From NCBI GenBank assembly GCA_965203175.1, contig OZ241867.1, forward strand, positions 2,048,001 through 2,112,000: a stretch of 64,000 nt of DNA, given 5' to 3'. The notes beneath the pieces were generated by a model, which ran no database searches, was not told the DNA's origin, and saw nothing but the letters and a program-made list of their open reading frames with translations. This stretch comes from Candidatus Latescibacterota bacterium (GTDB lineage Bacteria; Latescibacterota; UBA2968; UBA8231). Position numbers and translations under genes: made by a program. Shown one piece after another: positions 8,018-62,784 of the stretch. Every line of letters begins with the position of its first letter. Within the stretch, counting starts at the first letter, position 1.

Positions 8018-9370
8018 TCAAAACCGCAACGCAAACACCGTCCGCACGCCTGGTTCCGAACGGGCGGAGATGGACCCCCGGTGGAGCCGCATGATTTGGC
8101 GGCACAGGCTCAGCCCGATGCCGGAGCCGTCCGGCTTGGTCGTGAAAAAGGGAATGAAGACCTTGCCGAGTGCTTCTTCGACGATCCCTGGCCCATTGTC
8201 CGCGACCTCGACGACGACCTTGTCGTGCGCCAGATGAGCGGTCAAGTCAACGCGGGCTCCAGCGCGGCCAGCCGTGGCTTCGCGGGCATTGCTCAGTAGG
8301 TTGATGAGGATCTGCTCGACTTGCTCGGGGTCGGCGGTCAATTCGAGGCTGGGGGGATTGACCTCGGTGTGCAACTCGACTGCGGACTCGGTGAATTGGG
8401 ACCGCATTAGCTGCTCTACCCGAGCGAATAGACCGGCTGCCGGGACGATCTCAAAGGAGGGGGCTGGTACGCGGGTGAGGTCGCGGTAGGCTTCGACAAA
8501 GTGCAGCAGGCCCTCGCTGCGGCGCTGGATGGTGCTCACCGCAGTGCGGATGTCTTCGGTGCTCTCGGCATCGAGGGAATCGTCTTTTAGCATTCCGTCC
8601 GCGGTGGCGGCCAGCGAAGCAATGGGGGTGATGGAATTCATGATCTCGTGGGTGAGCACGCGGATCAGGTTTTGCCAAGCCTCCATTTCTTTTTCGTCGA
8701 GGTCGGGGCCAATGTCGTGGAGAGCTACTAGGGTGTTCTTGCGGTCGCCGATCTGGAATACCGAGGCGTGCAGGGCGAGTCGGACTTCCTCCAAACTCAC
8801 TAGGTCGCGGCCTTGAGGCCCGAGGCTTTGCAGGGTGGTGGTTAGGATGGGGTTGATTCGGTTGAGATCGGCAATGTGGCCCAAGCGGGGCACCCCCAAC
8901 AGGCGCTTGGCCGCGTTGTTGATCAGCGACACCTCGCCAGCGTTGTCGAAGACGATCAAGCCGACGCCAATGTGCTGCACCACGGTTTGCAGATAGCGCG
9001 CCTGTTCTTCCTTTTCGGCGCGCGCTTGGCGAAAGGCGTCGAGGACTTCGTTGAACGCGGTCTTGAGTTCGTCGAAAGAGGAGCCGAGGCCGCCGGTGAC
9101 AAAGGTCTGCGAGAAATCGGCGTAGCGGATGGCGTTCAAAAAGCGCGCTAGATCGCGGTTGGCGCGCTCGACGTAGTGAACGAGGGCGTAGAGTTGGTAG
9201 AGCAGGACGAAGCCGACGGCGATGGGGACGGCCAGATGATAGGTTCCTTTGGCTATTATATAGAACAGCAGCCACAGGGTGGCGCCGAAGAAGACGACGC
9301 GCAGCACGATCCGCGTGCGGAAGGCGCGGGCTCCTTGCGCCAAGCGATGCAGAACGTCCTTAAAGTCCAT
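8018..9370 (-). CDS. Sensor histidine kinase (two closely spaced TM helices, HAMP-like and PAS-like regions, HisKA, HATPase)
   Basis: H-box LTHEIMNSITPI, N-box QILINLLSNA, DNGPGI, FIPFFTTK, GSGIGLSL. It overlaps the 3' end of the regulator. Confidence 0.92.
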   Translation of the reverse strand: MDFKDVLHRLAQGARAFRTRIVLRVVFFGATLWLLFYIIAKGTYHLAVPIAVGFVLLYQLYALVHYVERANRDLARFLNAIRYADFSQTFVTGGLGSSFDELKTAFNEVLDAFRQARAEKEEQARYLQTVVQHIGVGLIVFDNAGEVSLINNAAKRLLGVPRLGHIADLNRINPILTTTLQSLGPQGRDLVSLEEVRLALHASVFQIGDRKNTLVALHDIGPDLDEKEMEAWQNLIRVLTHEIMNSITPIASLAATADGMLKDDSLDAESTEDIRTAVSTIQRRSEGLLHFVEAYRDLTRVPAPSFEIVPAAGLFARVEQLMRSQFTESAVELHTEVNPPSLELTADPEQVEQILINLLSNAREATAGRAGARVDLTAHLAHDKVVVEVADNGPGIVEEALGKVFIPFFTTKPDGSGIGLSLCRQIMRLHRGSISARSEPGVRTVFALRF

Positions 9371-10736
9371 ATTTCTCCATGCGGCGATAGAGGGCCGTGC
9401 GGGTCAAGCCGAGCTCCCGCGCGGTTTGGCTGACGTTGCCTTGGTGCTTGCGCAGCACCCGGGCGATGACCTCGCGTTCGACGTCTTCGAGGTTGTAGCT
9501 GTCAAAGGCGACGGACTCCTCCGGCGACGATGCCGCAGTCAAGGGGAAATCGTCTGCGGCTAGTCGGTCCCCTTCACTCATAATGACGGCGCGCTCCACC
9601 GCGTGCTGCAATTCCCGCACATTGCCCGGCCAAGCGTACGCACGCAAGTGGGCGAGCGCTTCGGCGGTCAGGCCGGTCAGCGCCTTGCGGTACTTGGTCC
9701 GGTACAGGTCGAGGAAGTGGCGGGCCAACAGCGCGATGTCCTCGGGGCGCTCGCGCAGGGGCGGTAGGTGGATTTCCACGGTGTTGATGCGGTAGAGCAG
9801 GTCCTGGCGGAAGGTGCCGGCGGTGGCCATTTCGTGGATGGGCTGGTTGGTGGCGCATATGAGGCGCACATCCACGGAGACGGGTTGGTTGGCACCGACG
9901 CGGACGATCTGCTGGTTTTGCAGGGCCGCGAGCAGCTTGACCTGCAAGGGCAGGGGCAGGTTGCCGATCTCGTCGAGGAACAGGGTGCCCCCGGAGGCGA
10001 TTTCAAAGCGGCCAGCGCGGTCGCTGCGGGCGTCAGTGAAGGCACCTTTGACGTGGCCGAAGAGTTCGCTCTCGAACAAGGTCTCGCTCAGGGACCCCAT
10101 ATCGACGGAGATGAAGACTTCGTCGGCGCGCGCCGAGCGGCGGTGAATCTCGCGCGCCACTAGTTCCTTGCCCGTGCCGTTTTCTCCGAGGATGAGGACG
10201 CTGGCGTCGGTGGCGGCTACCTTGGCCATTGTCTGAAATACTTCCTGTAGGACTGGGGCCTCGCCGATGAGATCGCCAAAGGGCTGGTCGAGATCCGCGG
10301 ACAGCCGCTGCTGGCGAGAGCGGAGGTGGTCGGTTTCCCGGCGCGAGCGATGCAATTCCACGGCCGCGGACACGGTGGCGAGCAGCTTCTCGTTCTGCCA
10401 GGGTTTGAGCACAAAATCGACGGCCCCCTCCTTGACGGCGCGCACGGCCATCTCGACGTCGCCGTACGCGGTGATCAGCAAGACAGCGACGGTCGGGTCT
10501 AGGTCGCTGATTTGTTGGAGCCAGTAGAAGCCCTCCCGGCCGCTGGTCGCCTCCTGCGTGAAGTTCATGTCGAGGAGGACGACGGCTGGCGACTCCTGTT
10601 TGAGGGCACTCGGAATGGCCTGGGGATCGGTCTCGGTGCGGACTTGGTAGCCCTGCTGCTTGAGGAGCAAGCGGGCGGCGACGAGCACGTCTTGATTGTC
10701 GTCCACGACGAGGATGCGGGCGGCTTCAACAGACAT
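9360..10736 (-). CDS. sigma54-dependent (NtrC-family) response regulator
   Basis: Receiver ILVVDD..LLDMNF..KPW; AAA+ GENGTGKE, ESELFGHVKGAFTDA, GTLFLDEI, WPGNVREL; Fis-type HTH. Confidence 0.95.
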   Translation of the reverse strand: MSVEAARILVVDDNQDVLVAARLLLKQQGYQVRTETDPQAIPSALKQESPAVVLLDMNFTQEATSGREGFYWLQQISDLDPTVAVLLITAYGDVEMAVRAVKEGAVDFVLKPWQNEKLLATVSAAVELHRSRRETDHLRSRQQRLSADLDQPFGDLIGEAPVLQEVFQTMAKVAATDASVLILGENGTGKELVAREIHRRSARADEVFISVDMGSLSETLFESELFGHVKGAFTDARSDRAGRFEIASGGTLFLDEIGNLPLPLQVKLLAALQNQQIVRVGANQPVSVDVRLICATNQPIHEMATAGTFRQDLLYRINTVEIHLPPLRERPEDIALLARHFLDLYRTKYRKALTGLTAEALAHLRAYAWPGNVRELQHAVERAVIMSEGDRLAADDFPLTAASSPEESVAFDSYNLEDVEREVIARVLRKHQGNVSQTARELGLTRTALYRRMEKYGL

Positions 10737-10751: not shown

Positions 10752-10792
10752 GTGTACGCCAGCGGACAGTAGGTGTATCACCAGCGGACAGT
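10752..10792. promoter_or_regulatory. Tandem putative enhancer (UAS) sites for the NtrC-family regulator
   Basis: Direct repeat GTGTACGCCAGCGGACAGT / GTGTATCACCAGCGGACAGT. Each copy is an imperfect TGT..-N-GGACA dyad. Confidence 0.6.
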
Positions 10793-10855: not shown

Positions 10856-10871
10856 TGGCATGTATCTTGCT
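10856..10871 (+). promoter_or_regulatory. sigma54 -24/-12 promoter
   Basis: TGGCATGTATCTTGCT versus consensus TGGCAC-N5-TTGCW; the GG-N10-GC spacing is exact. Confidence 0.8.
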
Positions 10872-10914: not shown

Positions 10915-12264
10915 ATGCCCGCAAATATTCGACTTTTCTCGAAAAAAGACCCCACTCCCGAGCCGAGCCCCGGTAGCACCCGCCTCGGCGGCGGCGTTGG
11001 CATGGATCGCAAAATCGAAAAGCCTCGGTTCACGCCCAAGCGCATCGCGCTAGGCGCGGCTGCTTTGCTGTTGGCCGGGCTATTCGGGTACGTCCTGCTC
11101 GTGGATTTCGGGGTGCGCAAGCTGAATGTGGAGCGCGAGCGGCTGACGATCTCGACGGTCGAGTTCGGCCCGTTTCAGGAATACATCCCAGTGCGCGGCA
11201 CGGTGCTGCCGCTGCACACCGTGTATCTCGACGCCTTGGAGCGCGGTCAAGTGGAGCAGGTGTTCGTCGAAGAGGGTGCCTCGGTGGCCGAGGGCGATCC
11301 ACTGCTGCGCCTTGCCAACCCCGATCTAGAATTGACCGTCCTGCAACAGGAAGCCGACCTCGAGCGCAGCCGGGAGGCGTTGCGCAATGGCCGGCTGACC
11401 ATGGAGCAGGAACTGCTGCGCTCGCGGAAATCACTGATGGAGATCGAGTACCAGCTAGCCATCAACAAGCGCAACTTCGAGCGCTACGAGAGCCTGTCGG
11501 CGGAAGATTTGACGGCCATCCTATCGCGGCAGGAGTACGAGAAGCTGCGCGACGAGTACCAGTACAGCGTCCGCCGCATGGCCCTGACGCGGGAGACCCA
11601 GACCCAGGACTCGCTGCTGTCGGCGAGCAAGGTGGTACAGCTCGTCTCGGCCGTGGAGCGCATGGAACGCAACCTCGAAATCGTCCGTCGTAGGCTCGAC
11701 AATCTGACGGTGCGAGCCCCTGTGTCCGGGCAGTTAACCCTGCTGGCGGCGGAGGTCGGCGAGAGCAAGGGGACGGGTGCGCGCTTGGGCAAGATCGACA
11801 TGATTGACGGTTTCAAGGTGCGCGCCGCTATTGACGAGCACTACATCGGCCGCGTGGGCCGGGGGCAGCGCGGCCAGTTCGACAGCGACGACGAGTCATA
11901 CAGCTTGATGATCCGCAAGGTCTATCCAGAGGTAAGGGAAGGCCGCTTTGAGGTCGATCTGGTGTTTGAAGGAGAAGCACCCGAGGGCATCCGGCGCGGC
12001 CAGACTCTGCACATTCGCCTTGAGTTGGGCGATCTGGATGAAGCAGTGCAAGTGGCAAGGGGTGGATTCTATCAGGCGACCGGGGGCCACTGGGCCTATG
12101 TGCTCGACGCTGCTGGCGACCGGGCCACGCGGCGCTCTATCGCCCTGGGACGCCAGAACCCCCGGGTGTACGAAGTGCTGGAGGGGCTTGAGCCGGGAGA
12201 GCAGGTGATTACTTCGAGCTATGAGACTTTTGGCGAAGACATGGACGTGTTGGTGTTGCGCTAG
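10915..12264 (+). CDS. Periplasmic adaptor/membrane fusion protein (HlyD/MacA-like)
   Basis: Single N-terminal TM; lipoyl halves GQVEQVFVEEGASVAEGDPLLRL and VRAPVSGQL flank a coiled coil; EGLEPGEQVITS. The start must be downstream of the sigma54 site (10915, alternatively 11002). Confidence 0.9.
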   Translation: MPANIRLFSKKDPTPEPSPGSTRLGGGVGMDRKIEKPRFTPKRIALGAAALLLAGLFGYVLLVDFGVRKLNVERERLTISTVEFGPFQEYIPVRGTVLPLHTVYLDALERGQVEQVFVEEGASVAEGDPLLRLANPDLELTVLQQEADLERSREALRNGRLTMEQELLRSRKSLMEIEYQLAINKRNFERYESLSAEDLTAILSRQEYEKLRDEYQYSVRRMALTRETQTQDSLLSASKVVQLVSAVERMERNLEIVRRRLDNLTVRAPVSGQLTLLAAEVGESKGTGARLGKIDMIDGFKVRAAIDEHYIGRVGRGQRGQFDSDDESYSLMIRKVYPEVREGRFEVDLVFEGEAPEGIRRGQTLHIRLELGDLDEAVQVARGGFYQATGGHWAYVLDAAGDRATRRSIALGRQNPRVYEVLEGLEPGEQVITSSYETFGEDMDVLVLR

Positions 12265-12290: not shown

Positions 12291-13025
12291 ATGACTGAGC
12301 AGACAGCAAACGCTGAAAACGGCCGCGCGCCCCTGATCCGCACTGTCGGGCTGCGCAAGCTATACACGACCGAGGAGGTGGAGACGACCGCCTTGGACAA
12401 CGTGAACCTCGAAATCGCCGAAGGCGAATTTGCCGCCATTATGGGGCCGTCGGGCTGCGGCAAGTCAACGCTGCTCAATCTGCTCGGCCTGCTCGACAAC
12501 CCAACCGAGGGGGAATACTGGCTGCTGGACGAGGAGGTAGCGACCTACTCGGAGCGCCTGCGGGCGAATCTGCGCAAGGGGACGATCGGTTTTGTCTTTC
12601 AGTCGTTCAACTTGATCAACGAATTGACCGTCCACGAGAACGTCGAGCTGCCCCTGCTCTACATGGGTATGCCAGCTACGGAGCGCAAGCAACGGGTGCG
12701 GTTGATCCTCGACCACATGCAGATCACCCACCGCGAGAAGCACTTTCCGCTCCAGCTTTCCGGCGGCCAGCAGCAGCGCGTGGCCGTAGCGCGGGCTTTG
12801 GTCGCGGAACCGAAGCTGGTGCTGGCGGATGAGCCGACGGGCAATCTCGACTCGCGCCACGGCGACGAGGTCATGGAGATGCTCACCGAGATGAACCGGA
12901 ATGGCACGACCGTGGTGATGGTGACGCACTCGCCGGCCTACGCCGACTTTGCGCACCGAATCATTCACTTGTTCGACGGCAGGATCGTGAGCGAGAACAT
13001 CGAGCGGGATCAGGAAGCGTCGTAA
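12291..13025 (+). CDS. ABC transporter ATP-binding protein 1 (MacB/LolD-like)
   Basis: [43 protein letters not shown]. Confidence 0.95.
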
Positions 13026-15482: not shown

Positions 15483-17846
15483 ATGCTGGGCAATTATCTG
15501 ACAACGGCGCTGCGCCTCTTGTGGCGGGAGCGCGGCTACGCGGCGATCAACATCTTCGGCTTGGCGGTTGGCTTTGCCCTGTGCCTGCTGATCATTCAGC
15601 TCGCCGACTATCAGCTCGCCATTGGCGATTTTCACGAGAAAAAAGACCGGGTTTACCGCGTGCTTGGGAAGTCATCATCCGGGTACGAGGGAGCGTTGCC
15701 TGTAGAGCTGGGGCCGACCCTCAAGGAGCAATTGCCCGAAGTTGAGGAGGCGGTCCGCTTCAGACCAGGTGGGCGGGGACTGCTTCGGGTCGAGGCCAAG
15801 GACGCGATCTACGAACAGGTTATGCTGGCGGAAGCCGGCGTTTTCGACATGTTCAGCTTGCGGCTCCTACGCGGAGATCCGAAGACGGCCCTGTCGCGTC
15901 CCTACACCATAGTGCTGACCGAGCCGTTGGCCCGTCGGCTGTTCGGAGATAACGATCCCATCGGACAGGTCATCCGCTACGAGGAAGACTTCGATTGCGA
16001 GGTCACCGGCATTGTCGGTCAGCCGCCCTCTAGTTCATTGCTCCAGGTCTCGGCGCTGGTCTCTTTCGCCACGATGTACGAGGAGAGTCGGAGGATGATG
16101 GAATCGAAGCACGTTAGGTCCTTCAGGACCTTCGTGCAGCTAACGCCCGGTGCCGACGCGGCTGTGGTGGCCACGCGCATCCCCGGCATTGCTGAGGAAC
16201 TTACGGGCTTACAAGAGGAAGCCGATTCCTACGCACTGCAACCTCTGAAAGCAATCTACTTCGACACGGAGGTGTCCAGCTACCTCGGCCCGAGAGGCAA
16301 CCTCTTCTACTTGACGCTATGCGCCATCTTGGCGGTGGTGGTCCTGACGATCGCTGGGGTCAACTACGTGAACTTGGCGACGGCGCGGGCGGAGCGCCGA
16401 ACCCACGAGATCGGCGTGCGCAAGGCCCTCGGCGCTCATCGCGGCCAGCTCATTCGCCAGCTCCTGAGCGAGTCGATTCTGCTGAGCGTTGGGGCGACGG
16501 TGCTAGGCGCGGTTTTAACAGAGGTTTTGATTGTGCTCATACCCATCATTACGGGATCCGATTTCCAGTTGCCCTACTTGCACTGGACGCTGTCGACCTG
16601 CGCTGGGGCTGCGGCGCTGGCGGTAGGGGTTGGACTGGCTGCGGGTATGTACCCGGCGTGGGTGGTGGCGCGCTTTCAGCCGGCGACTGCGGTGCACGGG
16701 GGCCGCGTGGGTGGTGCGCTTCTGCGTCGAGGCTTAGTAGTAGCGCAGTTTACGGTCACGGCGGCGTTGATGACGATGACGCTGCTGATATGGCACCAAC
16801 TCGACTACTTCCAAAACCTCCTTCGCGAGGACTCCGTCTTGGGGTTTGAGCTAGAACAGGTTGTCGTCGTCCACAACCGCGGCCTGACCATGGATCAAGC
16901 CCGAGTCTTCAAGACGGAGCTTCTGCAGGACAGCCGCATCGCCGCAGTGAGTCTCTCTTCTACAGTACCTGGTAAGGGTTCGCGGGCGACGTACGGTGTC
17001 AAGCCGGAGGGCGTGGAAGGGGAAGTAGGAATAAGAGTGTATCAAGTAGATGGTGACTTTGTCGAAATCATGGGATTGCGCATGAGCGAGGGACGTGCCT
17101 TTACCGACGAACCGGCCGACGCCCAAGCGATCATCATCAACGAGGCCGCCGCGAAGAGGATAGGATGGACAGAGCCGTTGGGCAAAACGATTTTCGGCTT
17201 CCAGGGCCGAGACCGGCGCGTCGTCGGCGTGATTGAGGACTTTCACTTCGACGGCCCGCACAGCAAGATAGAGCCACTGCTCATGGCACCGTTTGGTCAA
17301 TGGGCGTGGGCGGGAACCATTATCGTGCGGATGCAACCCGGGCATCTCGACGCAGCCCTCAAAGTGATCGACGACAAGTGGGCTGCTGTCTCACCCTATC
17401 GCCCCATCCAGCGCAATCCTCTCGAAGAAGTCTTCGCCGGACTCTATTCCGATGAGCTGCTGATGGGACGTGCGCTCACTTTCTTTCTCTTTTTAGCCAT
17501 CGCCGTCGCCTCGGTGGGGCTTTTCGGCATGGCCGCACACGCCGCCCAAGAGCGCACCAAGGAGATCGGCATCCGCAAGGTATTCGGGGCGTCCCCTGGC
17601 GGCCTCACCACTATGCTGCTGCGGGACTTTGCCAAACCTGTTGCCATTGCTTTTCTGCTCAGTGTGCCGATCGCCTATGGCTTGGCCAATCACTGGTTAC
17701 AGGAGTTTGCTTATCGCGCGGAAATCGGCGTGGGCCTGTTCCTGGTGTCGGGCGCTTTGTCCTTCGCCATCGCCGGGCTAACGGTGGGGCACCAAGCGAT
17801 GCGGGCGGCGCTGACCAATCCGATAGAGACGCTGCACACTGAATAA
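15483..17846 (+). CDS. FtsX/MacB-type duplicated ABC permease A2
   Basis: 787 aa; close paralog of A1 with the same motifs. Confidence 0.92.
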   Translation: MLGNYLTTALRLLWRERGYAAINIFGLAVGFALCLLIIQLADYQLAIGDFHEKKDRVYRVLGKSSSGYEGALPVELGPTLKEQLPEVEEAVRFRPGGRGLLRVEAKDAIYEQVMLAEAGVFDMFSLRLLRGDPKTALSRPYTIVLTEPLARRLFGDNDPIGQVIRYEEDFDCEVTGIVGQPPSSSLLQVSALVSFATMYEESRRMMESKHVRSFRTFVQLTPGADAAVVATRIPGIAEELTGLQEEADSYALQPLKAIYFDTEVSSYLGPRGNLFYLTLCAILAVVVLTIAGVNYVNLATARAERRTHEIGVRKALGAHRGQLIRQLLSESILLSVGATVLGAVLTEVLIVLIPIITGSDFQLPYLHWTLSTCAGAAALAVGVGLAAGMYPAWVVARFQPATAVHGGRVGGALLRRGLVVAQFTVTAALMTMTLLIWHQLDYFQNLLREDSVLGFELEQVVVVHNRGLTMDQARVFKTELLQDSRIAAVSLSSTVPGKGSRATYGVKPEGVEGEVGIRVYQVDGDFVEIMGLRMSEGRAFTDEPADAQAIIINEAAAKRIGWTEPLGKTIFGFQGRDRRVVGVIEDFHFDGPHSKIEPLLMAPFGQWAWAGTIIVRMQPGHLDAALKVIDDKWAAVSPYRPIQRNPLEEVFAGLYSDELLMGRALTFFLFLAIAVASVGLFGMAAHAAQERTKEIGIRKVFGASPGGLTTMLLRDFAKPVAIAFLLSVPIAYGLANHWLQEFAYRAEIGVGLFLVSGALSFAIAGLTVGHQAMRAALTNPIETLHTE

Positions 17847-17880
17847 CCAGCACACCCATTACGTGAGAGGAGACGCCATT

Positions 17881-19545: not shown

Positions 19546-19640
19546 GGGCAAGTCCGCACCCCGTAGCAAGGGTGCCACAAGGACGCCCTCTGCAAAAGCG
19601 AATTCGTTGGTACAAATGTTTGAAACTTGCTGCGAACCAT

Positions 19641-19673
19641 GTAGGGGCGGTTCGCGCTCCGCACCGTCCCTAC
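19641..19673. repeat. GTAG-type REP-like palindrome
   Basis: GTAGGGGCGGT-N11-ACCGTCCCTAC. Degenerate related sequence lies at 19543-19592. Confidence 0.55.
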
Positions 19674-19691
19674 GACACTAAAGGAACTATC

Positions 19692-22043: not shown

Positions 22044-22107
22044 CCAAGACGCTGAACGATATGCACGACCCTAAAAAAATCCTCACTGCGACACGAAGGG
22101 AACTATC

Positions 22108-47700: not shown

Positions 47701-47748
47701 CGTCAAAGGATAATAGACCTTCTCGAAGCGGCTGGTGCCACGGAGTAA
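44737..47748 (+). CDS. Secreted ankyrin-repeat protein ANK3 (~19 repeats)
   Basis: As ANK1. AAAGGAG RBS precedes ATG 44737; there is an in-frame upstream ATG at 44647. Confidence 0.88.
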   Translation: MLPFIACLIGIVLSIRVGAEPLVEGRIRLSSGLPAAGVQVRLFDLSDLRQSVSTTTDATGYFALSLQALSGGRGAALPADFALGQNYPNPFNPSTLIPYQLPATGHVRLEVFNMLGQRLVRLVDGERSAGAHTARWDGTDAAGRAVGAGVYIYRLSSGGMTVSRRMVLIDGQAGVRNGVSSRPYTAPATQDQAYGLAVWGSDMVAYVDPAFQIRDGMAPVDIVVEARGLSGRLKVAAGGLLGDVNGDGRVDIVDALFVAMYSVDPSTLAAHIPNISLGDVDADGDLDFTDAYLIGTYSVNPLDPTLPAGIGQAVSDPEFLTPEEARGALNDRGIAYTSASFLERIRAGDVSAVRLFIAAGIDIHARDADGTTALMLAAWYGHVEVVRLLLENGTDIHARRDNGQTALMMAAAAGHVEVVRILVEQWVAAAGARAQDADGSTALMWAARGGDVEMVRLLLENGANINAQDVSGTTVLMYAARGGDAEVVRLLLENGIDIHARNNNGITVLMYAARGGDAEVVRLLVENGTDVHAQNNNGITVLMYGARGGDVEVVRLLLENGTDIHAQDDHGGTALGAGADRGDVEVVRLLLENGADINTQDVSGSTALMKAALGGHVEVVRLLLENGADIHAEQEKGFTALMYAASGGDVEVVRLLLENGANINERNDYGYTALMRAAQRGDVEVVRLLLENGADLHAQNFSNSKTVLMFAADKGHVAVIRILVEQWVAEAGPEAQDASGRTVLMWAAFGGDVEMVRFLLENGADLHAQDASGRTVLMYAAWGGDVEVVRLLLENGTDIHAQDISSRTVLMYAAWGGDVEVVRLLVENGADIRARDVSGRTVLMDAARGGDVEVVRLLVENGADLHAQNAYDITVLMWAAFGGDVEVVRLLVENGTDLHARDISGTTVLMYAARGGDVAVARLLVENGTDIDVQNNDGWTALMFAIDFGYSGGEGGVEVVRLLLDNGADINVQNNDGWTALRLAKNNPRQRIIDLLEAAGATE

Positions 47749-47782
47749 CTTGGACGGCCCAAGAAAAGCCGGATGAGATGAT

Positions 47783-50230: not shown

Positions 50231-50310
50231 ATGCTGAGAACCTAATCATCACGGCTGGACGCAATCTCGTTCGGCACAAGGCGTATGCGCTACTGAATGT
50301 CGTTGGACTG
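50231..50310 (+). pseudogene. Frameshifted 5' remnant of a permease abutting the ANK4 leader
   Basis: ATGCTGAGA, then in another frame NLIITAGRNLVRHKAYALLNVVGL, which resembles MLRNNLIIAWRNLMRHRLHTAINLAGL. Confidence 0.75.
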
Positions 50311-50347
50311 ACATCCAACATCCATGAATGATAAAGGAGTTGATATC

Positions 50348-53300: not shown

Positions 53301-53368
53301 TTGCCAAAAGCAGGGGAGGGCAACCAAGGGTGGTAGACCTTCTTGAAGCGGCTGGTGCCACGGAGTAA
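50348..53368 (+). CDS. Secreted ankyrin-repeat protein ANK4 (~19 repeats)
   Basis: As ANK1. AAAGGAG RBS precedes ATG 50348. Confidence 0.88.
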   Translation: MLPFIACLIGLVLSIRVGAEPLVEGRIRLSSGLPAAGVQVRLFDLSDLRQSVSATTDATGYFALSLQALSGGRNATLPADFVLGQNYPNPFNPSTVIPYQLPAAGPVRLEVFNMLGQRLVRLVDGEQSAGVHMARWDGTDAAGRAVGAGVYIYRLSSGGMEVSRRMVLIDGQAGVRSGAPSRPYTASATQDQAYGLAVWGSDMVAYVDPAFQIRDGMAPVDIVVEKRSLSGRRKVVAGSLLGDVNGDGRVDIVDALFVAMYSVDPSTLAAHIPNISLGDVDADGDIDFTDAYLIGAYSVNPLDPTLPAGIGQAVSDYDSLTPEAARSALDDRGIAYTSASFLERVRAGDVSAVRLFIAAGMDIHAQDDDGTTALMWAARGGDVEEVRFLLENGANINARNNNGITALMFAAAAGHVEVVRLLVEQWVAAAGAQAQDDDGTTVLMWAARGGDVEMVRFLVDNGADVHAQDANGITVLMYAAWGGDVEVVRFLVDNGADVHAQDANGITVLMYAAWGGDVEVVRLLLDNGTDLHARNNNDWTVLMYAAWRAHVEVVRFLVENGADIHVQNNDGWTALMRATQSGDVEVVRFLVDNGADINKQTKHGFTALTWAAFGGDVEMVRFLVDNGADINAQEARGSTALIQAAFGGDVEVVRFLVDNGANINRKDDYGFTALMRAAQSGDVEVVRFLLANGADLHAQAFYSGKTVLMMAADEGRVEVIRILVEQWVAEAGTDARDASGRTVLMWASFGGDVEMMRFLLENGADINAQNDNGITVLMYGAWGGDVEVVRLLLANGADLHTQDSSGRTVLMWAARGGDVEVVRLLLANGADLHTPNVSGRTVLMDASFGGDVGVVRLLLDNGADINAQNDNGITVLMWASFGGDVEVVRLLLANGADLHTQDVSGTTVLMYAARGGDAEVMRLLLDNGADTDINAQNDNGRTALMFASDFGYSGGEGGVEVVRLLLANGADINARDNDGWTALNIAKSRGGQPRVVDLLEAAGATE
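51716..51913 (+). repeat. Exact 99-bp tandem duplication within ANK4
   Basis: Two identical units encoding FLVDNGADVHAQDANGITVLMYAAWGGDVEVVR. Confidence 0.88.
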
Positions 53369-53398
53369 CATGGACAGCCCAAGAAAAAGCCGGATGAT

Positions 53399-55801
53399 AT
53401 GTGGAAGAGCAACCTGATCATTGCCCTGCGCGTGTTGGGGCGCAACAAGACGATCTCGCTGATCAACATCATCGGCCTATCCGTGGCCTTTGCCGTGGCA
53501 GTCCTGTGTCTGCTGTTCGTGCGCCACGAGACTTCCTTTGACGCTTGGCACGAAAAAGGGGACCGGATCTTCGCCATCTATCTTGAGCTTCTAAAGCCCG
53601 ACCCCGGTTCCTCCCCCAACCGTTCCACGAAGGTGGGTTACCGTCTGCGCGAGGACGTGCGCGCTAAAGTTCCCGGCATCCGCGAATCGGTTTCTATGAA
53701 GCTGGGATACGGCCAAGTCTCGTATGAAGATGCGAGCTTTGACGAGTCCTTCCTCGCTGTCGATCCGGCTTTCCTGACCATGTTCACCTTGCCGCTGGCG
53801 GCGGGCGATGCGACGACGGCCCTTGACGATCCCCAGAGCGTTGTTCTCACCCATGAGACTGCGCAGAAGTACTTCGGCCCAGATGTGCCAGCCCACGCCA
53901 TGCTGGGCAAGCACATCCGGCTGCATACCGTCGAGCGGGACTACTCGACATCGCCACCGAAGGAGACGCCTATCGAGGTAGAGCGCACCATTGCGGGTGT
54001 GCTGGCTCCCTTGCCGGGGCCTTCTATTTTGCGTCTAAAGGTACTCGTGCCCGCAGTAACAGCCGAGGCGCTGCACTTCAGAGGGGAAGACGGACTTTTT
54101 GTTGAACTCGAAGAGGGAGTAGAGCCTACCGAAGTGGAAACGCGGCTGGAGTCCCTGGTCTCGCGGGCCCGACTGAAGTTGCAACCTTTTGTGGGTGCTC
54201 ACATAGGACCTGAGATAGCGGGACCCGCCGACTTTGGTTATGGCAAGGTTGAGCATATCTATCTGCTGGCGGGACTGGCCGTGCTCGTGCTGCTGATCGC
54301 TGCTATCAACTTCGTCAACCTCGCCATGAGCCGCGCTATGACGCGGACCTTGGAAGTCGGGGTGCGCAAGGCAATCGGCGCGACGCGCCACCAGCTTTCC
54401 AACCAATTTCTCGCCGAAGCAATTGTGGTGAGCCTAATTTCCATCGTCGTTGGCATGGGCCTCGCCGAAGTCCTGCTGCCGACATTTAACGCGGTCGTGT
54501 ATCAGGAGCTAGAGATTGAGTGGCTGTCGGTCGAGACGGGGATAGGTGCCTTGACCCTTGCCTTGATGGTCGGCGTACTGTCGGGCTTGTATCCGGCCCA
54601 AGTGGTTGCGCGGCTCCATCCCGTCCGGGCACTGTCCCGCAAGACGCCTCAGCCGGGTCGCGGCTGGCTCGGTCGCGGTCTGATTGTCGTGCAGTTTGCG
54701 CTGTCGGCCGTTCTCCTCGTCGTGGCGATCACTATGGCGCGACAGCTCGATTTCATGCGCACCAAGGATTTGGGTTTCGACGGCGACCAGGTCGTGCTGA
54801 TTGCCCACAAAGGCGATCTCAATCCTTTGCAGATTGAGCGTCTCGCCGACGAGATCAATTCCCGACCGGGACTTTTACAAGGAGTCACTGGTGCTTGGCC
54901 AGCACCTGGCTTTGGCGGCTATCCCCCCATGCCAATCCGGTCCGATGAGAAAGTACTCCGCGCCAAGCCCTTCTACGTAAGTCCAAACTTCCTAAGCGTC
55001 ATGGGTATCGAAGTCCTCTCCGGACAGGGCTTCGATCCCAATCTGCCGCATGGCATCCTGCTCAACGAGACCGCTGCAGACTTCTTCGGCCCTGAAGACC
55101 TAATCGGCCGCACCTTGACAGGCCCTAGTGACGAGCCGATAACGGTGATCGGCATAGTCAAGGATTTCCACTTCGTGGATATGCGCCATACCATAGGACC
55201 GGCTTTTCTAACGACGAGTACGCTCATATCCAAGCCCAAACCCTTGGTGCAGGCAGACCAGTTCAAGTACACCCTATTTCGGCTCAACCGCGCCGACCTG
55301 CCCGCGGCAGTTGAAGAAGTAAAGGCGCTGTGGAAGCGGGTTTTGCCGGAATACGAATTATGGGGCGTGCGCTTCCTCGACGAGTCCTTTGCCGCGAGAT
55401 ACTGGGAAGAGCAGCGCGTCGGCGTTGTCATGAGATGGATGAGCGCCGTTGCCATTGCGATCTCCTGCATGGGGCTTTTTGGCTTGGTTGCCCTAGCGGC
55501 GGTGCGGCGCACCAAGGAAATTGGCATCCGCAAGGTATTAGGCGCTACGACTAGCAGCGTGCTGCTGTTGATGTCGCGCGAGTTCGGCTGGCTGGTGGTG
55601 GCGGCCAACGTTGTTGCCTGGCCTGTGGCTTATTTCGTCTTGAACCGCTGGCTCGCGTTCTACGCCTATCGGATTGACATCGGCCTGGGGTGGTTTGTGC
55701 TGGCGGGCGTGGGCGTTCTCGCGGTTGCGCTGGCTACCGTCAGCAGTCAGACGTGGTTAGCGGCGCGGACCAATCCGGCGGATGCGTTGAGATACGAGTA
55801 A
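53399..55801 (+). CDS. FtsX/MacB-type duplicated ABC permease D2
   Basis: 800 aa; paralog of D1. Confidence 0.92.
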   Translation: MWKSNLIIALRVLGRNKTISLINIIGLSVAFAVAVLCLLFVRHETSFDAWHEKGDRIFAIYLELLKPDPGSSPNRSTKVGYRLREDVRAKVPGIRESVSMKLGYGQVSYEDASFDESFLAVDPAFLTMFTLPLAAGDATTALDDPQSVVLTHETAQKYFGPDVPAHAMLGKHIRLHTVERDYSTSPPKETPIEVERTIAGVLAPLPGPSILRLKVLVPAVTAEALHFRGEDGLFVELEEGVEPTEVETRLESLVSRARLKLQPFVGAHIGPEIAGPADFGYGKVEHIYLLAGLAVLVLLIAAINFVNLAMSRAMTRTLEVGVRKAIGATRHQLSNQFLAEAIVVSLISIVVGMGLAEVLLPTFNAVVYQELEIEWLSVETGIGALTLALMVGVLSGLYPAQVVARLHPVRALSRKTPQPGRGWLGRGLIVVQFALSAVLLVVAITMARQLDFMRTKDLGFDGDQVVLIAHKGDLNPLQIERLADEINSRPGLLQGVTGAWPAPGFGGYPPMPIRSDEKVLRAKPFYVSPNFLSVMGIEVLSGQGFDPNLPHGILLNETAADFFGPEDLIGRTLTGPSDEPITVIGIVKDFHFVDMRHTIGPAFLTTSTLISKPKPLVQADQFKYTLFRLNRADLPAAVEEVKALWKRVLPEYELWGVRFLDESFAARYWEEQRVGVVMRWMSAVAIAISCMGLFGLVALAAVRRTKEIGIRKVLGATTSSVLLLMSREFGWLVVAANVVAWPVAYFVLNRWLAFYAYRIDIGLGWFVLAGVGVLAVALATVSSQTWLAARTNPADALRYE

Positions 55802-58300: not shown

Positions 58301-58354
58301 CACGCCGTCAGGACGAGTCGCATTGATCCAATAGAAGCGCTGCACTGTGAGTGG
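58301..58354 (+). pseudogene. 3' remnant of another permease
   Basis: Translates HAVRTSRIDPIEALHCE-TGG, compared with HAVRAAMANPVDSLRSE* and ADLVEALRCE* in intact paralogs. Confidence 0.65.
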
Positions 58355-58472: not shown

Positions 58473-60326
58473 ATGGACAACTTCCATCCCGAAAACTTCG
58501 TCGAGCGCTGCTTGGCGGGCAACGCGCAAGCCTTTGAGCCGCTCGTCCGGCACTACCAGAACGCGGCCTTTGCCACGGCCCTGCGCTACGTGCGCTCGCA
58601 GGTCGATGCCCAAGACATCGTGCAGGATGCCTTTGTCTCCGCGTACTGCCGCTTGGGGCAACTGCGCGATAGGGAGCGTTTCGGTGGCTGGTTGATGCAC
58701 ATCGTAGCCAATCGTTGCAAGGACTGGTTACGCGACCGCAGGCGGACACAGCCGTTGGATTCGGCAGAGACGACTCTGGAGAATGCGGCCGCGACCGAGC
58801 ACGCGGACCAGATGCGGCGGCTGGAGTTGCAGGAGGCCGTTGATCTGTTGCCCGAACACTACCGCTCGGCCGTGCTGATGTACTACCTGAGCGGCCTGTC
58901 CTACCGAGAAATCGCCGAGTTGATGGAAGTCCCTCTGAGTACGGTGTGCGGCCGATTGCAACAAGGACGCATCCGGCTGCGCCAGCTATGGGACGAACCC
59001 GACCACGAGGAGATTGCCATGAAGCCAATCGACGTGACCGAACAGGTCCAAGAGGTGGTGTGCCAAATCGCCACCCGACAGGTGCAGGAGACGATTCCGC
59101 TAGGGGATACCGAGCACATCGTCTTCTACTGCGCCCTGGACACCGATCTCGAGATCCGCCAAGCCGAGGGCGAAGACGCAGTGCTCGAAGGGACGCTCAG
59201 CGCAATTGGGTTGACGCGGGAAAAGGCCCGGGAGAGCGTCGAAAGCATTGAGATCGGGGCCGACCAAGTGGATAGTTTCCTCGAGAGCGGTCCGCATGAG
59301 GGCGAGGTGTTTATGAGGACCCACCAGCAGAACGACCAACTCGAGGCCGAGTCTCTGGATAGCGGACAATTGTGGCGAGCCTACGTGGAGGGAAGCCCCT
59401 ATCCCTGGGGCGTGACAAACGGCGTTAAGACGACGGATGCCTTTCCCCAGATGCAAGCATATACCGACGGCAGTATGCCGACTGATATGCGCTTGAGGTT
59501 GGGGCGGGCCACGCGGATAACGGTCTATCGCGAAAAACTCGAAGACATAATCCTGCCGCCCTCGGCTGTTACGGCAGAAGTCCAACAGGTCTTTCGCCCC
59601 AACAGCACGTCGCTCGAAAGGGTCCACGGACCAGTTGGTTCCGCCAGCTTAGTGTTGCTGGTGCCCAAGGGCAAGCGCGTGACTGTCATCAAAGGGAAGC
59701 AGATCCGCGCCTTTGGTTTGCAGGACTCAATTAGTTTTATCGAATCGACCTGTGAGGAAGTGGCCGATATTGAGGGCGATGTGGAACTCTTCGACAGCGC
59801 ATTGGAGACGGCACGCAATATCCGCGGCAAGCTCTACCAGCGCTACTACCGATACCTCGGCATGAGGATGGAGGGCCGCGAGGTCAGGCGTCAGGCAGCT
59901 AAAAATTGTCGTCTGGAGGATATTAGCGGCGGCGTGGATATTGACGTGGGCGGCGTACAAATTGAGGCCACCCGGTTGGGGGGCCGGGTGCGGATCTACA
60001 ACCGCTTTGGCCATACGCAGTTACATCAGGATCAACTCGCCACAGACAGCCGCATCGAACTGGAATCGTGTGGGGGCGACATTCATCTCTCGCTCAAAGG
60101 AGCCCTGCTGGACGAGGTTTTGCTGGACGAGGTACATCTGACAGTGCTCACGCTGTGCGGGCGGATCCAATCTACGGTCTTTAAGGATAGGGACAAGCCT
60201 CTCAGAATGGCCAACAACTCCGAGGTGATGGTCCTGTCGAACGCGCCTAGTGGCCCAGCGATACTAGCGGCGGATTTTATGCTCAAAAGCGAGGTCGGCG
60301 AGATCGTTGTCGAGCAGGCGAAATAG
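58473..60326 (+). CDS. ECF sigma-70 factor with ~430-aa C-terminal extension
   Basis: sigma2 AFEPLVRHYQ..DAQDIVQDAF..FGGWLMHIVANRCKD; sigma4 LPEHYRSAVLMYYLSGLSYREIAELMEVPLSTV. Confidence 0.88.
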   Translation: MDNFHPENFVERCLAGNAQAFEPLVRHYQNAAFATALRYVRSQVDAQDIVQDAFVSAYCRLGQLRDRERFGGWLMHIVANRCKDWLRDRRRTQPLDSAETTLENAAATEHADQMRRLELQEAVDLLPEHYRSAVLMYYLSGLSYREIAELMEVPLSTVCGRLQQGRIRLRQLWDEPDHEEIAMKPIDVTEQVQEVVCQIATRQVQETIPLGDTEHIVFYCALDTDLEIRQAEGEDAVLEGTLSAIGLTREKARESVESIEIGADQVDSFLESGPHEGEVFMRTHQQNDQLEAESLDSGQLWRAYVEGSPYPWGVTNGVKTTDAFPQMQAYTDGSMPTDMRLRLGRATRITVYREKLEDIILPPSAVTAEVQQVFRPNSTSLERVHGPVGSASLVLLVPKGKRVTVIKGKQIRAFGLQDSISFIESTCEEVADIEGDVELFDSALETARNIRGKLYQRYYRYLGMRMEGREVRRQAAKNCRLEDISGGVDIDVGGVQIEATRLGGRVRIYNRFGHTQLHQDQLATDSRIELESCGGDIHLSLKGALLDEVLLDEVHLTVLTLCGRIQSTVFKDRDKPLRMANNSEVMVLSNAPSGPAILAADFMLKSEVGEIVVEQAK

Positions 60327-60342: not shown

Positions 60343-62784
60343 ATGCTGCGCAGTTACGTCGTAATCGCACTGCGGAACCTGATACGCGACAAAGTGGTGA
60401 CCAGCATCAACATCGTGGGCTTGTCAGTCGCTATCGCCGTCAGCGCAATCCTCGGCCTTGGCGTACACGGCGCCCTGACCGCGGATTGGAACCTTCGCGA
60501 GGATGACCGCCTCTTCCGCGTAGTGGCACGCGAGATTAGCTCTGCGGGTCACATACAGCGCCCGGCGTATCAGAGCGAGGATCTCGCCGCGGCGCTCGCA
60601 GAGACGTTCCCCGAGATCGCCCGCACCACGCGCGTAATCTCGACGAGTGTCCTGATGACAGTAGGCGAGCGCCATCTCGAGCACTCAGTGGTCGAGGTTG
60701 ATCCCCCGTTCCTACAGATGTTCCACTATCCGCTCGCGGCCGGTAATCCGGCCACGGCGCTAGACGACCTCGACCAAGTCGTCATTTCCAAGCGACTGGC
60801 CGAGCGCATGTTCGGAGATGAATTCAGGGACTACCCAGAACTCGTGGGCCGGCAAATCGTCTTGCACGGCAATGAGGGACCCGAGGCATACACGGTTGCC
60901 GGTGTCTTCGCCGATCTGCCAAAAAAGCGGAGCCTGGACCTTGACGCGGCGATTCGCTTTGAGAACCGGACGAAGTATGGCATGGCCAGTTACTGGGGCG
61001 CTACGGCTTCTACGTACATCGCGCTTCAGCCCCTTGCCGAGCGGAAGGCACTCGAAGCAAAGCTCCCGGAGTTCTCCCGCACGTTCATCGCGCCGCTCTG
61101 GGAACGCTACAAAGGTGTGCGCTGGAAGGACGATCCAGACGCCTTCCTCCTCGAACTCGAAGACGCACGGACGATCTACCTCGATCCGCAGGCCCAGACC
61201 TATTATAGCTCTGAAAAATCCGTGAGCATGGAGTCAATCCTCGCCCTCGTCGCTCTGATTGGCATCATCCTAACTGTTGCCTGCATCAATTTCACCACTC
61301 TCGCCGTAGCGGGTTCCATGGGCCGGAGTGCGGAAGTGGGCGTGCGCAAGGCACTCGGCGCTAACAAGGCACAAATCGCCCTGCAGTTTTTAGGCGAGGG
61401 CGTCCTGCTGGCCTTGTTCTCTTTGATCGCCGGACTGATCCTCGTGCAGTTGGGGTTGCCCGTCTTTAACGCGCTTTATGGACTTGACCATTGGGTCGGG
61501 CTGTCGCTCGGCGATCTAGGTCTGCCAATTCTCGTCGGCGGAGGTGTCTTGTTGGTGGTGCTGATCGGCATCGCCGCAGGAAGCTATCCGGCCCTAATCG
61601 TGGCGCGGATGCAGCCTGCGTCTGTCGTCCGCGAGGTGTCGCCGTGGCGCAGAAGAAGGGCGACGAGCGCGCTTCTGACCTTGCAGTACGGCATGGCGGT
61701 TTTCCTGATCTTCTGCACCATTGCGATTCGTCAGCAGTTGGATTTTGCTCAGTCGCGCGATCTGGGATACGCGGCTGAGGAGGTCGTCGTCGTCAAGCTG
61801 CGCGGTGCAGACCCCACGCGGCTCGGCGAACGCTTCAAGGAGGCAGCCCTTTCCCAGTCGGGTGTCGCTGGTGTGGCCTTGGCCGATCGCGAATTTTCGC
61901 TCAGTGCTAGCACCAATTACATCAAGCGGCCGGACGGGGAGCGCGTGAGCGTGTTCGTGTATGCCGTTGACCCCGACTTCTTCACCACCTTGGGCATCGA
62001 CCTCGTATCCGGCCGCTCCTTTGCGGCCGGACGGCTGGCTGATCGGACGGAAAGTGTCGTTGTCAATCAGCGCTTTGCGGACGCTTACGGCTGGGGGGAA
62101 AATGCCGTTGGCGAATTCCTGCCGGAGTACGGGGGCTACGGCGTGAGCAAAACGCCTACCGTCATCGGCGTCATACCGGACTTCCACTTCCGCTCTCTTC
62201 GGGAGCCGATCAAACCCGCCGTGTTCCACTATGGGCCGGAAGTGTCCTTTAAGCGGGCACTGGTGCGGCTGAATACACACGAGGTTGACGACGCGCTCGC
62301 GGGACTAGAGCAGCTATGGGAAAGGGTGGCACCCGAACAACCCTTTGAGTACGAGTTCCTCGACCGGGCTTTTGCCCGTCAGTACGAGAATGACAAGGAG
62401 AGCAGTCGCACCGTTACCTTTGCCTCCGTCGTCGCCATTCTCATTGCCTGCATGGGTTTGTTCGGCCACGCGACTATCGTCCTGCAGCGGCGCACCAAGG
62501 AGATCGGCGTCCGCAAAGTGCTCGGCGCTACGGTGGCAGAGATCCTCGCGCTCTTGTCGCGCGACCTGACGAAAATGGTTGCCTTGGCCTGCCTGTTGGC
62601 GTTTCCGCTGGCCCACTTCTTGGTAGGGCAATGGATGTCGCGATACGCCTATCAGTTTGGGTTGGGACTGACGACGTACCTCCTCTGCGGGACGATCGCT
62701 TTTGCGATTGCACTGGGCACGGTGGCGTACATCGGCGTCCGAGCCGCACGGGAGAATCCCGTACATGCCCTGCGCTATGAGTAG
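60343..62784 (+). CDS. FtsX/MacB-type duplicated ABC permease E1 (divergent singleton)
   Basis: 813 aa; INIVGLSVA, CINFTTL..EVGVRKALGA, RRTKEIGVRKVLGA, NPVHALRYE; AAGGAGG RBS. Confidence 0.92.
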   Translation: MLRSYVVIALRNLIRDKVVTSINIVGLSVAIAVSAILGLGVHGALTADWNLREDDRLFRVVAREISSAGHIQRPAYQSEDLAAALAETFPEIARTTRVISTSVLMTVGERHLEHSVVEVDPPFLQMFHYPLAAGNPATALDDLDQVVISKRLAERMFGDEFRDYPELVGRQIVLHGNEGPEAYTVAGVFADLPKKRSLDLDAAIRFENRTKYGMASYWGATASTYIALQPLAERKALEAKLPEFSRTFIAPLWERYKGVRWKDDPDAFLLELEDARTIYLDPQAQTYYSSEKSVSMESILALVALIGIILTVACINFTTLAVAGSMGRSAEVGVRKALGANKAQIALQFLGEGVLLALFSLIAGLILVQLGLPVFNALYGLDHWVGLSLGDLGLPILVGGGVLLVVLIGIAAGSYPALIVARMQPASVVREVSPWRRRRATSALLTLQYGMAVFLIFCTIAIRQQLDFAQSRDLGYAAEEVVVVKLRGADPTRLGERFKEAALSQSGVAGVALADREFSLSASTNYIKRPDGERVSVFVYAVDPDFFTTLGIDLVSGRSFAAGRLADRTESVVVNQRFADAYGWGENAVGEFLPEYGGYGVSKTPTVIGVIPDFHFRSLREPIKPAVFHYGPEVSFKRALVRLNTHEVDDALAGLEQLWERVAPEQPFEYEFLDRAFARQYENDKESSRTVTFASVVAILIACMGLFGHATIVLQRRTKEIGVRKVLGATVAEILALLSRDLTKMVALACLLAFPLAHFLVGQWMSRYAYQFGLGLTTYLLCGTIAFAIALGTVAYIGVRAARENPVHALRYE

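Follow-up and report, generated by a model that had tools for sequence, protein, structure and literature searches.

A chromosomal array of paralogous MacB-type permeases behind a conserved sigma-54 promoter in a Latescibacterota bacterium, interleaved with ankyrin genes in one clade

Why does a single chromosomal locus carry twelve MacB-type permeases next to two ATPases and one periplasmic adaptor, and do the exported ankyrin proteins encoded between them belong to the same system? The question is raised by a window of 64,000 nucleotides of Candidatus Latescibacterota bacterium (the whole stretch of DNA that was analysed; contig OZ241867.1, positions 2,048,001–2,112,000), in which 26 plus-strand genes cover about 52 kb (10.9 to 62.8 kb in window positions, as used throughout) and diverge from a histidine kinase/response regulator gene pair. 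It had originally been predicted that these genes form an undescribed sigma-54-controlled envelope system, in which interchangeable permeases share motor and adaptor subunits, evolve by birth and death and are coupled to diversified secreted binding proteins. The 31 long open reading frames (ORFs) of the window were scanned with Pfam and NCBIfam; paralogs were compared by BLASTP and remnants were sought by tblastn. The orthologous loci of seven congeners were fetched and annotated against the window proteins; these seven together with the window are referred to as the eight loci.

The plus-strand genes start with the adaptor and ATPase 1, followed by permeases P1 and P2, a beta-solenoid protein, P3, P4, an Omp85 protein, ATPase 2, P5, P6, a TlpA-like protein, a CBM9-like protein, P7 and P8; then come Ank1, Ank2, Ank3, P9, Ank4, P10, P11, an extracytoplasmic function (ECF) sigma factor and P12. 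The predicted co-oriented array of about 52 kb behind a sigma-54 promoter was borne out by the ORFs and their domain matches and by the promoter, which is kept in all eight loci; the domain scans likewise returned one adaptor, two ATPases and 12 intact permeases. By domain content the locus belongs to the type VII (MacB) ATP-binding cassette (ABC) superfamily. With moderate confidence, we read it as a chromosomal, vertically inherited and inducible envelope locus for efflux or defence, in which type VII ABC paralogs have multiplied around a shared motor and adaptor. The comparison with relatives shows the ankyrin interleaving to be clade-specific and probably incidental.

All 12 permeases (778–841 residues) contain two MacB_PCD and two FtsX stretches each (Pfam), with scores of 92–136 bits for MacB_PCD (PF12704, cut-off 27) and 68–92 bits for FtsX (PF02687, cut-off 25.5). 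From hydropathy, eight transmembrane (TM) helices are predicted in every one of them in a 1+3+1+3 arrangement, that is TM1, a periplasmic domain of about 250 residues and TM2–4, twice over. Judged by this architecture, each permease consists of two MacB units fused into a pseudo-dimer. The five subfamilies predicted earlier (4+2+2+3+1) were recovered exactly by BLASTP, with identities of 70–87% within and 27–34% between subfamilies. Subfamily A comprises P1 (13067–15463), P2 (15483–17846), P3 (19692, the conserved start, to 22043) and P4 (22108–24444); subfamily B, P5 (26656–29025) and P6 (29078, the conserved start, to 31444); subfamily C, P7 and P8 (33787–38834); subfamily D, P9 (47783–50182), P10 (53399–55801) and P11 (55883–58282); and subfamily E, P12 (60343–62784), all on the plus strand. 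A 13th full-length permease is encoded elsewhere in the genome (6237063–6239507). Ankyrin genes 7–10 kb from it were considered as a second linkage and rejected, as unrelated genes lie between; the ankyrin ORFs concerned have no hydrophobic N-terminus and are not among the full matches to the N-terminal module described below.

A codon-aware comparison of the paralogs placed the divergence mainly in the periplasmic domains. Within subfamilies these domains are 63–84% identical with ratios of nonsynonymous to synonymous change (dN/dS) of 0.26–0.50, and TM1, the TM5 region and TM6–8 are 78–100% identical with dN/dS mostly below 0.3; with all ratios below 1, purifying selection acts on the copies. 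In comparisons between subfamilies, identity is 25–28% for the periplasmic domains versus 38–43% for TM1, TM2–4 and TM6–8, and 32% for the segment of loop plus TM5. Coupling-helix motifs are kept in all 12 proteins in the cytoplasmic TM2–TM3 and TM6–TM7 loops, and the two halves differ in the form of the motif (E-[IV]-G-V-R-K in the first and R-T-K-E-[IV]-x-[IV]-R-K in the second). This pattern of divergence is as expected if the permeases dock common ATPases while their periplasmic domains specialise. At the 5' and 3' ends of the paralogous genes, synonymous divergence (dS) is below that in the parts encoding the periplasmic domains, for instance 0.10 in TM1 and 0 in the TM5 region versus 0.28–0.31 in the periplasmic domains of P9 and P10; the lower values at the gene ends suggest gene conversion between tandem copies.

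The periplasmic adaptor, a membrane fusion protein (10915–12264, plus strand; 449 residues from the corrected start), has one N-terminal TM helix and matches HlyD_3 and RND_mfp, the latter (TIGR01730) with 108.4 bits against a cut-off of 94.9; it is present in all eight loci at 89–94% identity. ATPase 1 (12291–13025, plus strand) is of the MacB/LolD/FtsE type according to Pfam, NCBIfam and its motifs, and ATPase 2 (25961–26635, plus strand; Pfam and motifs) is 53% identical to it. Walker A, LSGGQ and Walker B-DE motifs are intact in both, and their orthologs occur in all seven congener loci at identities of 95–99.6% (ATPase 1) and 97–99% (ATPase 2). The gene for ATPase 1 always stands 5' of the A group of permeases and that for ATPase 2 always 5' of the B group. 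The two ATPases may form a heterodimer that fits two unlike permease halves, or two homodimers that serve different subfamilies. Across the eight loci, 4–17 intact permeases stand against two ATPases and one adaptor, in agreement with the predicted excess of permeases over motor and adaptor.

What is constant in all eight loci is the kinase, the activator, the promoter, the CCAGCGGACA repeats (see below), the adaptor and the two ATPases. The number of intact permeases varies: four in G013, five in G001, six in G010 and in G011, seven in G012, 12 in G022 and in the window, and 17 in G023. Because the core is fixed in eight of eight loci while the permeases range from 4 to 17, the permease family turns over fast around a fixed core. 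Broken copies are found as well, namely a frameshifted A copy in G013, an E copy in three pieces in G010 and a fragment of 251 residues in G001, and five relatives possess a sixth subfamily, F, of which the window has no member. The window itself holds one clear scar on the plus strand (25801–25937; tblastn identities of 88–100%, E down to 2e-17), in which an internal deletion has left 15 codons from the start and 34 from the end of an A-type permease. Two further remnants are weak, one of about 25 codons of a permease N-terminus (50239–50316, plus strand; best E 1e-5, 48% identity) and one at 58301–58351 (tblastn), so that one of the several scars proposed originally is clear. The variable copy number, the broken copies and the scar agree with birth and death of the permeases.

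How the array might be switched on is suggested by its regulators. The sensor histidine kinase (8018–9370, minus strand; 450 residues) and the NtrC-type sigma-54 activator (9360–10736, minus strand; receiver, AAA+ and Fis-type helix-turn-helix domains, Sigma54_activat E 3e-66, GAFTDA motif at residue 231) are encoded upstream of the array on the opposite strand and outside the co-oriented run, which corrects the earlier description. Their identities over the seven congener loci are 91–96% and 94–98%, respectively. In the kinase, two TM helices (residues 21–39 and 46–64, from hydropathy) precede PAS, HisKA and HATPase_c domains (Pfam); since the loop between the helices counts only about six residues, a periplasmic sensor domain is lacking, and the kinase is unable to bind a periplasmic ligand through such a domain. 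Intramembrane-sensing kinases read the activity of Bce-type FtsX transporters (the flux-sensing model), and the hairpin kinase of the array resembles them.

Two direct copies of CCAGCGGACA (10759–10790, plus strand) are candidate sites for the activator. They stand 22 bp apart in the window (22–23 bp across the loci), about 65–95 bp upstream of the promoter, and are found in all eight aligned upstream regions, of which the G011 stretch spans the second copy only; one copy carries a single-base difference in G010 and in G022. We infer that the activator would bind them. The -24/-12 promoter TGGCATGTATCTTGC (10856–10870, plus strand) has one mismatch to TGGCAC-N5-TTGC, and TGGCAT-N5-CTTGC is kept in the window and all seven congeners. 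The call is based on this conservation, because the matches with two mismatches to the consensus over the whole window (87 versus 72.5 expected) are not above chance. Other near-consensus matches at 48835, 56935 and 53229 were rejected, as they lie inside coding repeats of the paralogs. An ORF caller would begin the adaptor at an ATG that overlaps the promoter; comparison with relatives placed the start at 10915. The features expected of a sigma-54 operon were thus found, namely a spaced element 5' of the first gene, an adjacent activator with a GAFTGA-type loop, and rpoN elsewhere in the genome (438 bits, cut-off 277). The genome holds 26 sigma-54 activator genes scoring at least 177 bits, and about 12 of these lie in open frames of 1049–1094 residues, unusually long for the family.

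Scans for internal sigma-70 promoters and terminators gave counts at or below the shuffled expectation, with none convincing in the intergenic gaps of the array, using consensus models that may not suit this host; they neither support nor refute a single operon. Contigs from three metatranscriptome libraries, stemming from relatives at 90–99% identity, cover parts of the locus and leave other parts of the array uncovered. One of 3.3 kb spans the adaptor and the start of ATPase 1. Another of 6.5 kb (run X20; window 17457–29116) runs without interruption from the end of an A permease through the beta-solenoid gene and ATPase 2 into a B permease, which implies that a relative with a much shorter array exists in the X20 sample.

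Is such an array peculiar to this organism? Among 31 genomes of the genus, 23 gave a match at E <= 1e-60 and eight did not, three of these eight being assemblies of 1–3 contigs. In a sample of the phylum, P2 was matched at E <= 1e-40 in 60 of 121 genomes, and single genomes yielded up to 54 first-look candidates; the fractions in two sister families were 28 of 29 and 12 of 13. Arrays fetched from other families or genera of the class were similar: G031 has nine permeases, an adaptor, two ATPases and an ECF sigma factor; G114 has 11 permease ORFs, an adaptor and two ATPases; G105 has a sigma-54 activator (66% identical), a kinase, a TlpA-like gene, an adaptor, an ATPase and four intact permeases plus fragments; and the stretch from G136, of another genus of the same family, has 8–9 permeases and a CBM9-like gene only. 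Given such arrays across the class, the multi-permease array is a class-wide trait and the window a well-preserved example. To call it an undescribed system was thus too strong, as it belongs to a class-wide trait within the MacB/type VII ABC superfamily whose function is uncharacterised; a search of the open-access literature returned no paper describing such multi-permease arrays or the N-terminal module of the ankyrin proteins. PADLOC identified no defence system among the 16 proteins scanned, in four of which just generic AAA+, ABC-ATPase and ankyrin models matched. The locus was also matched in runs labelled sponge metagenome from three studies, with shares of 0.28–0.57.

The exported and regulatory genes between the permeases are of several kinds, and Pfam confirmed the predicted Omp85, TlpA-like, CBM9_1 and ECF sigma genes; the label 'DUF4097-like' is weak by sequence. 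It had been given to a protein of 560 residues with a signal peptide (17863–19545, plus strand), which matches LiaG weakly (NCBIfam, E 1.9e-7) and does not match Pfam DUF4097. Its AlphaFold model is a long regular beta-solenoid (mean confidence, pLDDT, 78.3). A Foldseek search against the PDB ranked 4QRK first (E 7.5e-5, probability 1.00) and 4OPW second, with low TM-scores of 0.17–0.35; a phmmer search against PDB sequences gave no match. According to PMC11237479, both structures represent the Toastrack domain, which has ties to membrane-stress signalling and to ABC operons. The gene is flanked by A-type permeases in the five of five loci that have it.

The Omp85-superfamily outer-membrane barrel (24524–25771, plus strand; 415 residues, signal peptide, Omp85 E 4.5e-10) follows A-type permeases in all four loci in which it occurs (window, G010, G022 and G023). 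A TlpA/ResA-like thiol-disulfide oxidoreductase (31481–32875, plus strand; CGPC at residue 368, N-terminal 330 residues without a family match) and an exported CBM9-like protein (32872–33735, plus strand; CBM9_1 in Pfam) form a pair between B and C permeases in three of three loci (window, G012 and G010). The ECF sigma factor (58473–60326, plus strand; 617 residues, called by Pfam and synteny) has a C-terminal extension of 440 residues with neither a TM helix nor a Pfam match, and its gene stands directly 5' of the E permease in four of four loci. It shows a weak similarity to the start of the beta-solenoid protein (34% over 89 residues, E 7e-4), and in G022 an internal deletion has left its residues 1–171 and 523–617.

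The four ankyrin proteins are encoded on the plus strand by Ank1 (38899–41331), Ank2 (41395–44604) and Ank3 (44647–47748), which together form a lineage-specific insertion, and by Ank4 (50324–53368), which with P10 is a segmental duplicate of Ank3 and P9. They have 810–1069 residues, with 11–18 ankyrin units of 99 bp each, and share one order of parts: a Sec-type signal peptide, CarboxypepD_reg, a domain resembling the C-terminal domain (CTD) of type IX secretion system (T9SS) cargo and FlgD_ig, a short beta region, a dockerin and the ankyrin repeats. Their description as dockerin-ankyrin proteins held up, as Dockerin_1 scored 25.4–27.9 bits against a cut-off of 22.9 in all four, and the two calcium-binding loops (GDVNGDGRVD and GDVDADG) are kept across 12 aligned modules. 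Cohesin (PF00963) had no match in the 6.58-Mb genome, a search that divergent cohesins could escape. The T9SS type A sorting domain (TIGR04183) scored 36.3–39.5 bits (cut-off 23) in all four proteins and lies at residues 95–197, not at the C-terminus as in T9SS cargo. Elsewhere in the genome about 115 ORFs carry the sorting domain at the C-terminus and the SprA translocon is present (618 bits), from which it follows that the organism has a large T9SS secretome. The genome is also rich in ankyrin proteins (107 Ank_2 matches), with further ankyrin clusters at C1:2232–2245 kb and 4797–4799 kb.

The full N-terminal module of these proteins (about 320 residues; 38899–39990 and its paralogs) was found with a local hidden Markov model on nine ORFs of the genome, four of them in the window, and a tenth copy is partial. 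The five other full-module genes (C1:357189, 360308, 4436225, 4439794 and 5427358) encode proteins with leucine-rich repeat (LRR), CARDB/PPC, WD40/PD40 or GSDH/NHL domains, and the partial copy one with LRR, CARDB and peptidase domains; the module genes outside the window are located at four places in the genome, none of which adjoins an FtsX permease. Between one and 12 copies per genome occur in 25 of the 31 genus genomes. The AlphaFold2 model of the module is of low confidence (pLDDT 56.8), and a search of genome contigs with the module matched only the T9SS-CTD part (residues ~85–181) in diverse metagenome-assembled genomes of the FCB group. A protein atlas gave scores of at most 0.82, which are leads only; one cluster (Por_Secre_tail, FlgD_ig, dockerin) was commonest in Poribacteria. 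The module may be a lineage-specific device that exports or anchors eukaryote-like proteins.

Are the ankyrin proteins then part of the permease system? The module matches over the 31 genus genomes (121 at E <= 1e-85) were set against the positions of the arrays. Five of the 23 array-bearing genomes have module genes within or next to the array (G000, G011, G012, G021 and G041); these five form one clade, as their modules are 86–91% identical. The other 18, some of them fragmented drafts, have no module gene in the array. Within the clade the ankyrin genes sit between C or F and D permeases, and the same junction exists in G010 and G023 without an ankyrin gene; an ankyrin match was likewise absent from the fetched arrays of G031, G114, G105 and G136 (three other families or genera of the class). 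In the window, 44701–49620 and 50311–55212 are 86% identical over 4.9 kb and represent a tandem duplicate of Ank3 plus P9 as Ank4 plus P10. The simplest account would be a single ankyrin insertion in one recent clade, followed by co-amplification with a D permease. The predicted coupling of permeases to diversified secreted binding proteins is thus not upheld: module genes accompany the array in one clade, elsewhere the module heads LRR, WD40/PD40, CARDB/PPC and GSDH/NHL proteins, arrays of other families lack ankyrin genes, and the synteny survey of relatives found ankyrin genes largely unlinked to permeases.

In design the locus is close to MacAB-TolC, the holotype of type VII ABC systems, with which it shares an FtsX-type four-TM unit with a large MacB periplasmic domain, a MacB/LolD-type ATPase and an HlyD-family adaptor; as the MacB family is described as acting by mechanotransmission on periplasmic substrates (PMC5985334), the locus probably works by mechanotransmission on periplasmic or outer-leaflet substrates. 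Unlike in MacAB-TolC, two units are fused here into an eight-TM chain, the ATPase is separate, 12 permeases stand against two ATPases and one adaptor, the locus lacks a TolC gene and is under sigma-54 control. In YbbAP-TesA of E. coli (PMC12646458), two type VII units are likewise fused in one permease, which works with a separate ATPase and has a periplasmic protein as its dedicated partner; the YbbA model scores 184–193 bits on the ATPases of the array. However, with two additional TM helices as linkers YbbP reaches 10 (PMC5985334), versus the eight predicted here, and the array has an adaptor and no TesA-like gene.

Among named families, ADOP (TIGR03434) gave the best NCBIfam match for all 12 permeases, with the same tandem-duplicated length and architecture and with large paralogous families per genome. 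The scores of 250.9–286.3 bits are below the cut-off of 622.3, so the permeases are not ADOP members by the NCBI threshold, and no protein of the genome exceeds it. The ADOP family has been described as orphan permeases; the permeases of the array are not orphans, since ATPases and an adaptor are encoded next to them. The best-scoring named match for the adaptor and both ATPases was DarBCD, the darobactin exporter, in which the FtsX permease is likewise duplicated, the ATPase is a protein of its own and an adaptor is present. However, the scores are far below the cut-offs (DarB 54–84 versus 700, DarC 165 versus 450, DarD 247 and 266 versus 375 bits), and a general Pfam scan of the window ORFs turned up no peptide-precursor or radical-SAM gene. 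BceRS-BceAB likewise has a kinase without an extracellular sensor domain beside an FtsX-type ABC transporter that the kinase regulates. It differs in that the regulator here is of the NtrC/sigma-54 and not the OmpR type, the host is diderm and an adaptor is present in the locus; BceB has 10 TM helices and one periplasmic domain (PMC5985334), versus eight and two in the permeases of the array.

For the ankyrin genes the comparison is with sponge symbionts. Enrichment of eukaryote-like proteins (ELPs) in these organisms is widely reported. The ankyrin-rich genome and the sponge-metagenome matches of the locus fit this picture, whereas the subset in the window has a fixed N-terminal module of signal peptide, CarboxypepD_reg, non-C-terminal T9SS-CTD-like domain and dockerin.

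From these elements a working scheme can be drawn up. The kinase, without a periplasmic sensor domain, would sense within the membrane or through the transporter and phosphorylate the NtrC-type activator, which would bind the two upstream CCAGCGGACA repeats and open the sigma-54 promoter. The resulting transcript or transcripts would encode the single adaptor, both ABC ATPases and eight-TM permeases in varying number. Because the cytoplasmic coupling helices are kept in all of them, the permeases would dock the same ATPase pool (a heterodimer or two homodimers) and use the one adaptor; because the periplasmic domains have diverged, each subfamily would handle a different periplasmic or outer-leaflet substrate or partner. 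The output would be the clearance of membrane-active compounds met in the sponge environment, or protection against them, with export through a TolC-type duct specified by genes outside the locus. The four ankyrin genes would encode secreted eukaryote-like repeat proteins that are passengers rather than components.

This scheme has to be weighed against other explanations. The array could be an assembly artefact made of collapsed or mis-joined repeats, to which we attach next to no probability. The short-read contigs of an independent sponge-metagenome run do end at paralog boundaries, and because they break there they do not test the gene order; over the unique parts, however, they match the window at >=99% identity (for example 994 nucleotides with three differences). 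Moreover, the genome assembly is a single 6.58-Mb contig, the closest paralogs in the array are at most 89% identical in DNA and all 12 permease reading frames are intact. Seven congeners, six of them assemblies of 1–2 contigs, keep the locus and its order between the same flanking genes, with a TonB-dependent receptor of 883–887 residues on one side and a pectate-lyase-like gene on the other (G022, G023). Misassembly of the array is therefore unlikely. A biologically different reading, ranked second and in our estimate unlikely, is that the permeases are not efflux pumps and serve as mechanotransmission modules for partner activation, as in FtsEX-EnvC, LolCDE-LolA and YbbAP-TesA: the A permeases would be paired with the Toastrack-like beta-solenoid and Omp85 proteins and the B and C permeases with the TlpA-like and CBM9-like proteins, the E permease would signal to the ECF sigma factor, and one ATPase pair would drive all. 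The adjacencies kept in five of five (beta-solenoid and A), four of four (Omp85 and A), three of three (TlpA-CBM9 and B/C) and four of four (ECF sigma and E) loci argue for it, as do the absence of a TolC gene from the locus, the tie of Toastrack domains to membrane-stress signalling and ABC operons (PMC11237479), and the type VII ABC systems with dedicated periplasmic partners established according to PMC12646458 and PMC5985334. Yet an efflux-type adaptor, above the RND_mfp cut-off, is present in all eight loci and points to a trans-envelope pump; genes for the beta-solenoid, Omp85, TlpA and CBM9 proteins are all absent from G011 and G001, and in G023 an E permease occurs without the ECF sigma factor.

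A coupling of the ankyrin proteins to the permeases, the D permeases and adaptor exporting, releasing or displaying them for host interaction, would account for four genes that are interleaved with D permeases, co-oriented and separated by gaps of 30–142 bp, for the duplication of Ank3 and P9 as a unit and for the recurrence of the arrangement in five genomes; some MacB-type systems do export small proteins. We nevertheless hold it to be the least probable of the biological readings. D permeases are present in the 18 array-bearing congeners whose arrays lack a module gene, the genome encodes five to six further module proteins that do not adjoin permeases, arrays of other families have no ankyrin gene, and with a Sec signal peptide on the proteins the T9SS translocon of the genome could serve their export. 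At 810–1069 residues the ankyrin proteins are also, to our knowledge, far larger than any known MacB substrate. Only slightly less doubtful is a multiplexed platform, in which one ATPase pair and the adaptor would power permease cartridges with subfamily-specific exported partners and the D cartridges would have gained dockerin-ankyrin partners in one clade; if this were true, host-interaction proteins would be handled by a MacB-type machine. The inducible efflux or defence locus remains the reading we prefer, and several points weigh against it. The window has no TolC-family gene, and the nearest of seven OEP proteins elsewhere in the genome is encoded about 94 kb away. The sharing of ATPases and adaptor is deduced from gene counts and conserved motifs; a single transcript over 52 kb, the substrate class and the sensed signal are likewise deductions. 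The conserved exported neighbours of the A, B/C and E subfamilies fit partner activation as well as efflux, and the duplication of ankyrin and D permease genes as a unit could reflect function and not chance. In addition, the assembled RNA-library contigs come from relatives and prove no transcription, strand or level.

Next to the array, 911 bp separate the TonB-dependent receptor from the histidine kinase, and this gap holds a HigB-like toxin gene (7299–7607, plus strand; PF05015, E 4.9e-16) and the XRE/helix-turn-helix antitoxin gene paired with it (7620–7916, plus strand). Weak ankyrin-like tblastn matches in this gap (7107–8017) were rejected in favour of the toxin-antitoxin pair. Rfam gave no match over the whole window.

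Tandem-duplicated MacB/FtsX permeases are among the largest paralogous families in several phyla, and their roles are almost wholly obscure. With its 4–17 permeases around an unchanging core, the congener series opens two questions to direct testing, namely whether one ABC motor can serve many transmembrane partners and whether specificity is set by the periplasmic domains. The series also carries a caution, in that the most striking feature of the window, the ankyrin interleaving, would be a recent clade-specific insertion. The N-terminal module itself, found on ankyrin, LRR and WD40 proteins, may mark how a sponge-associated lineage exports or anchors eukaryote-like proteins.

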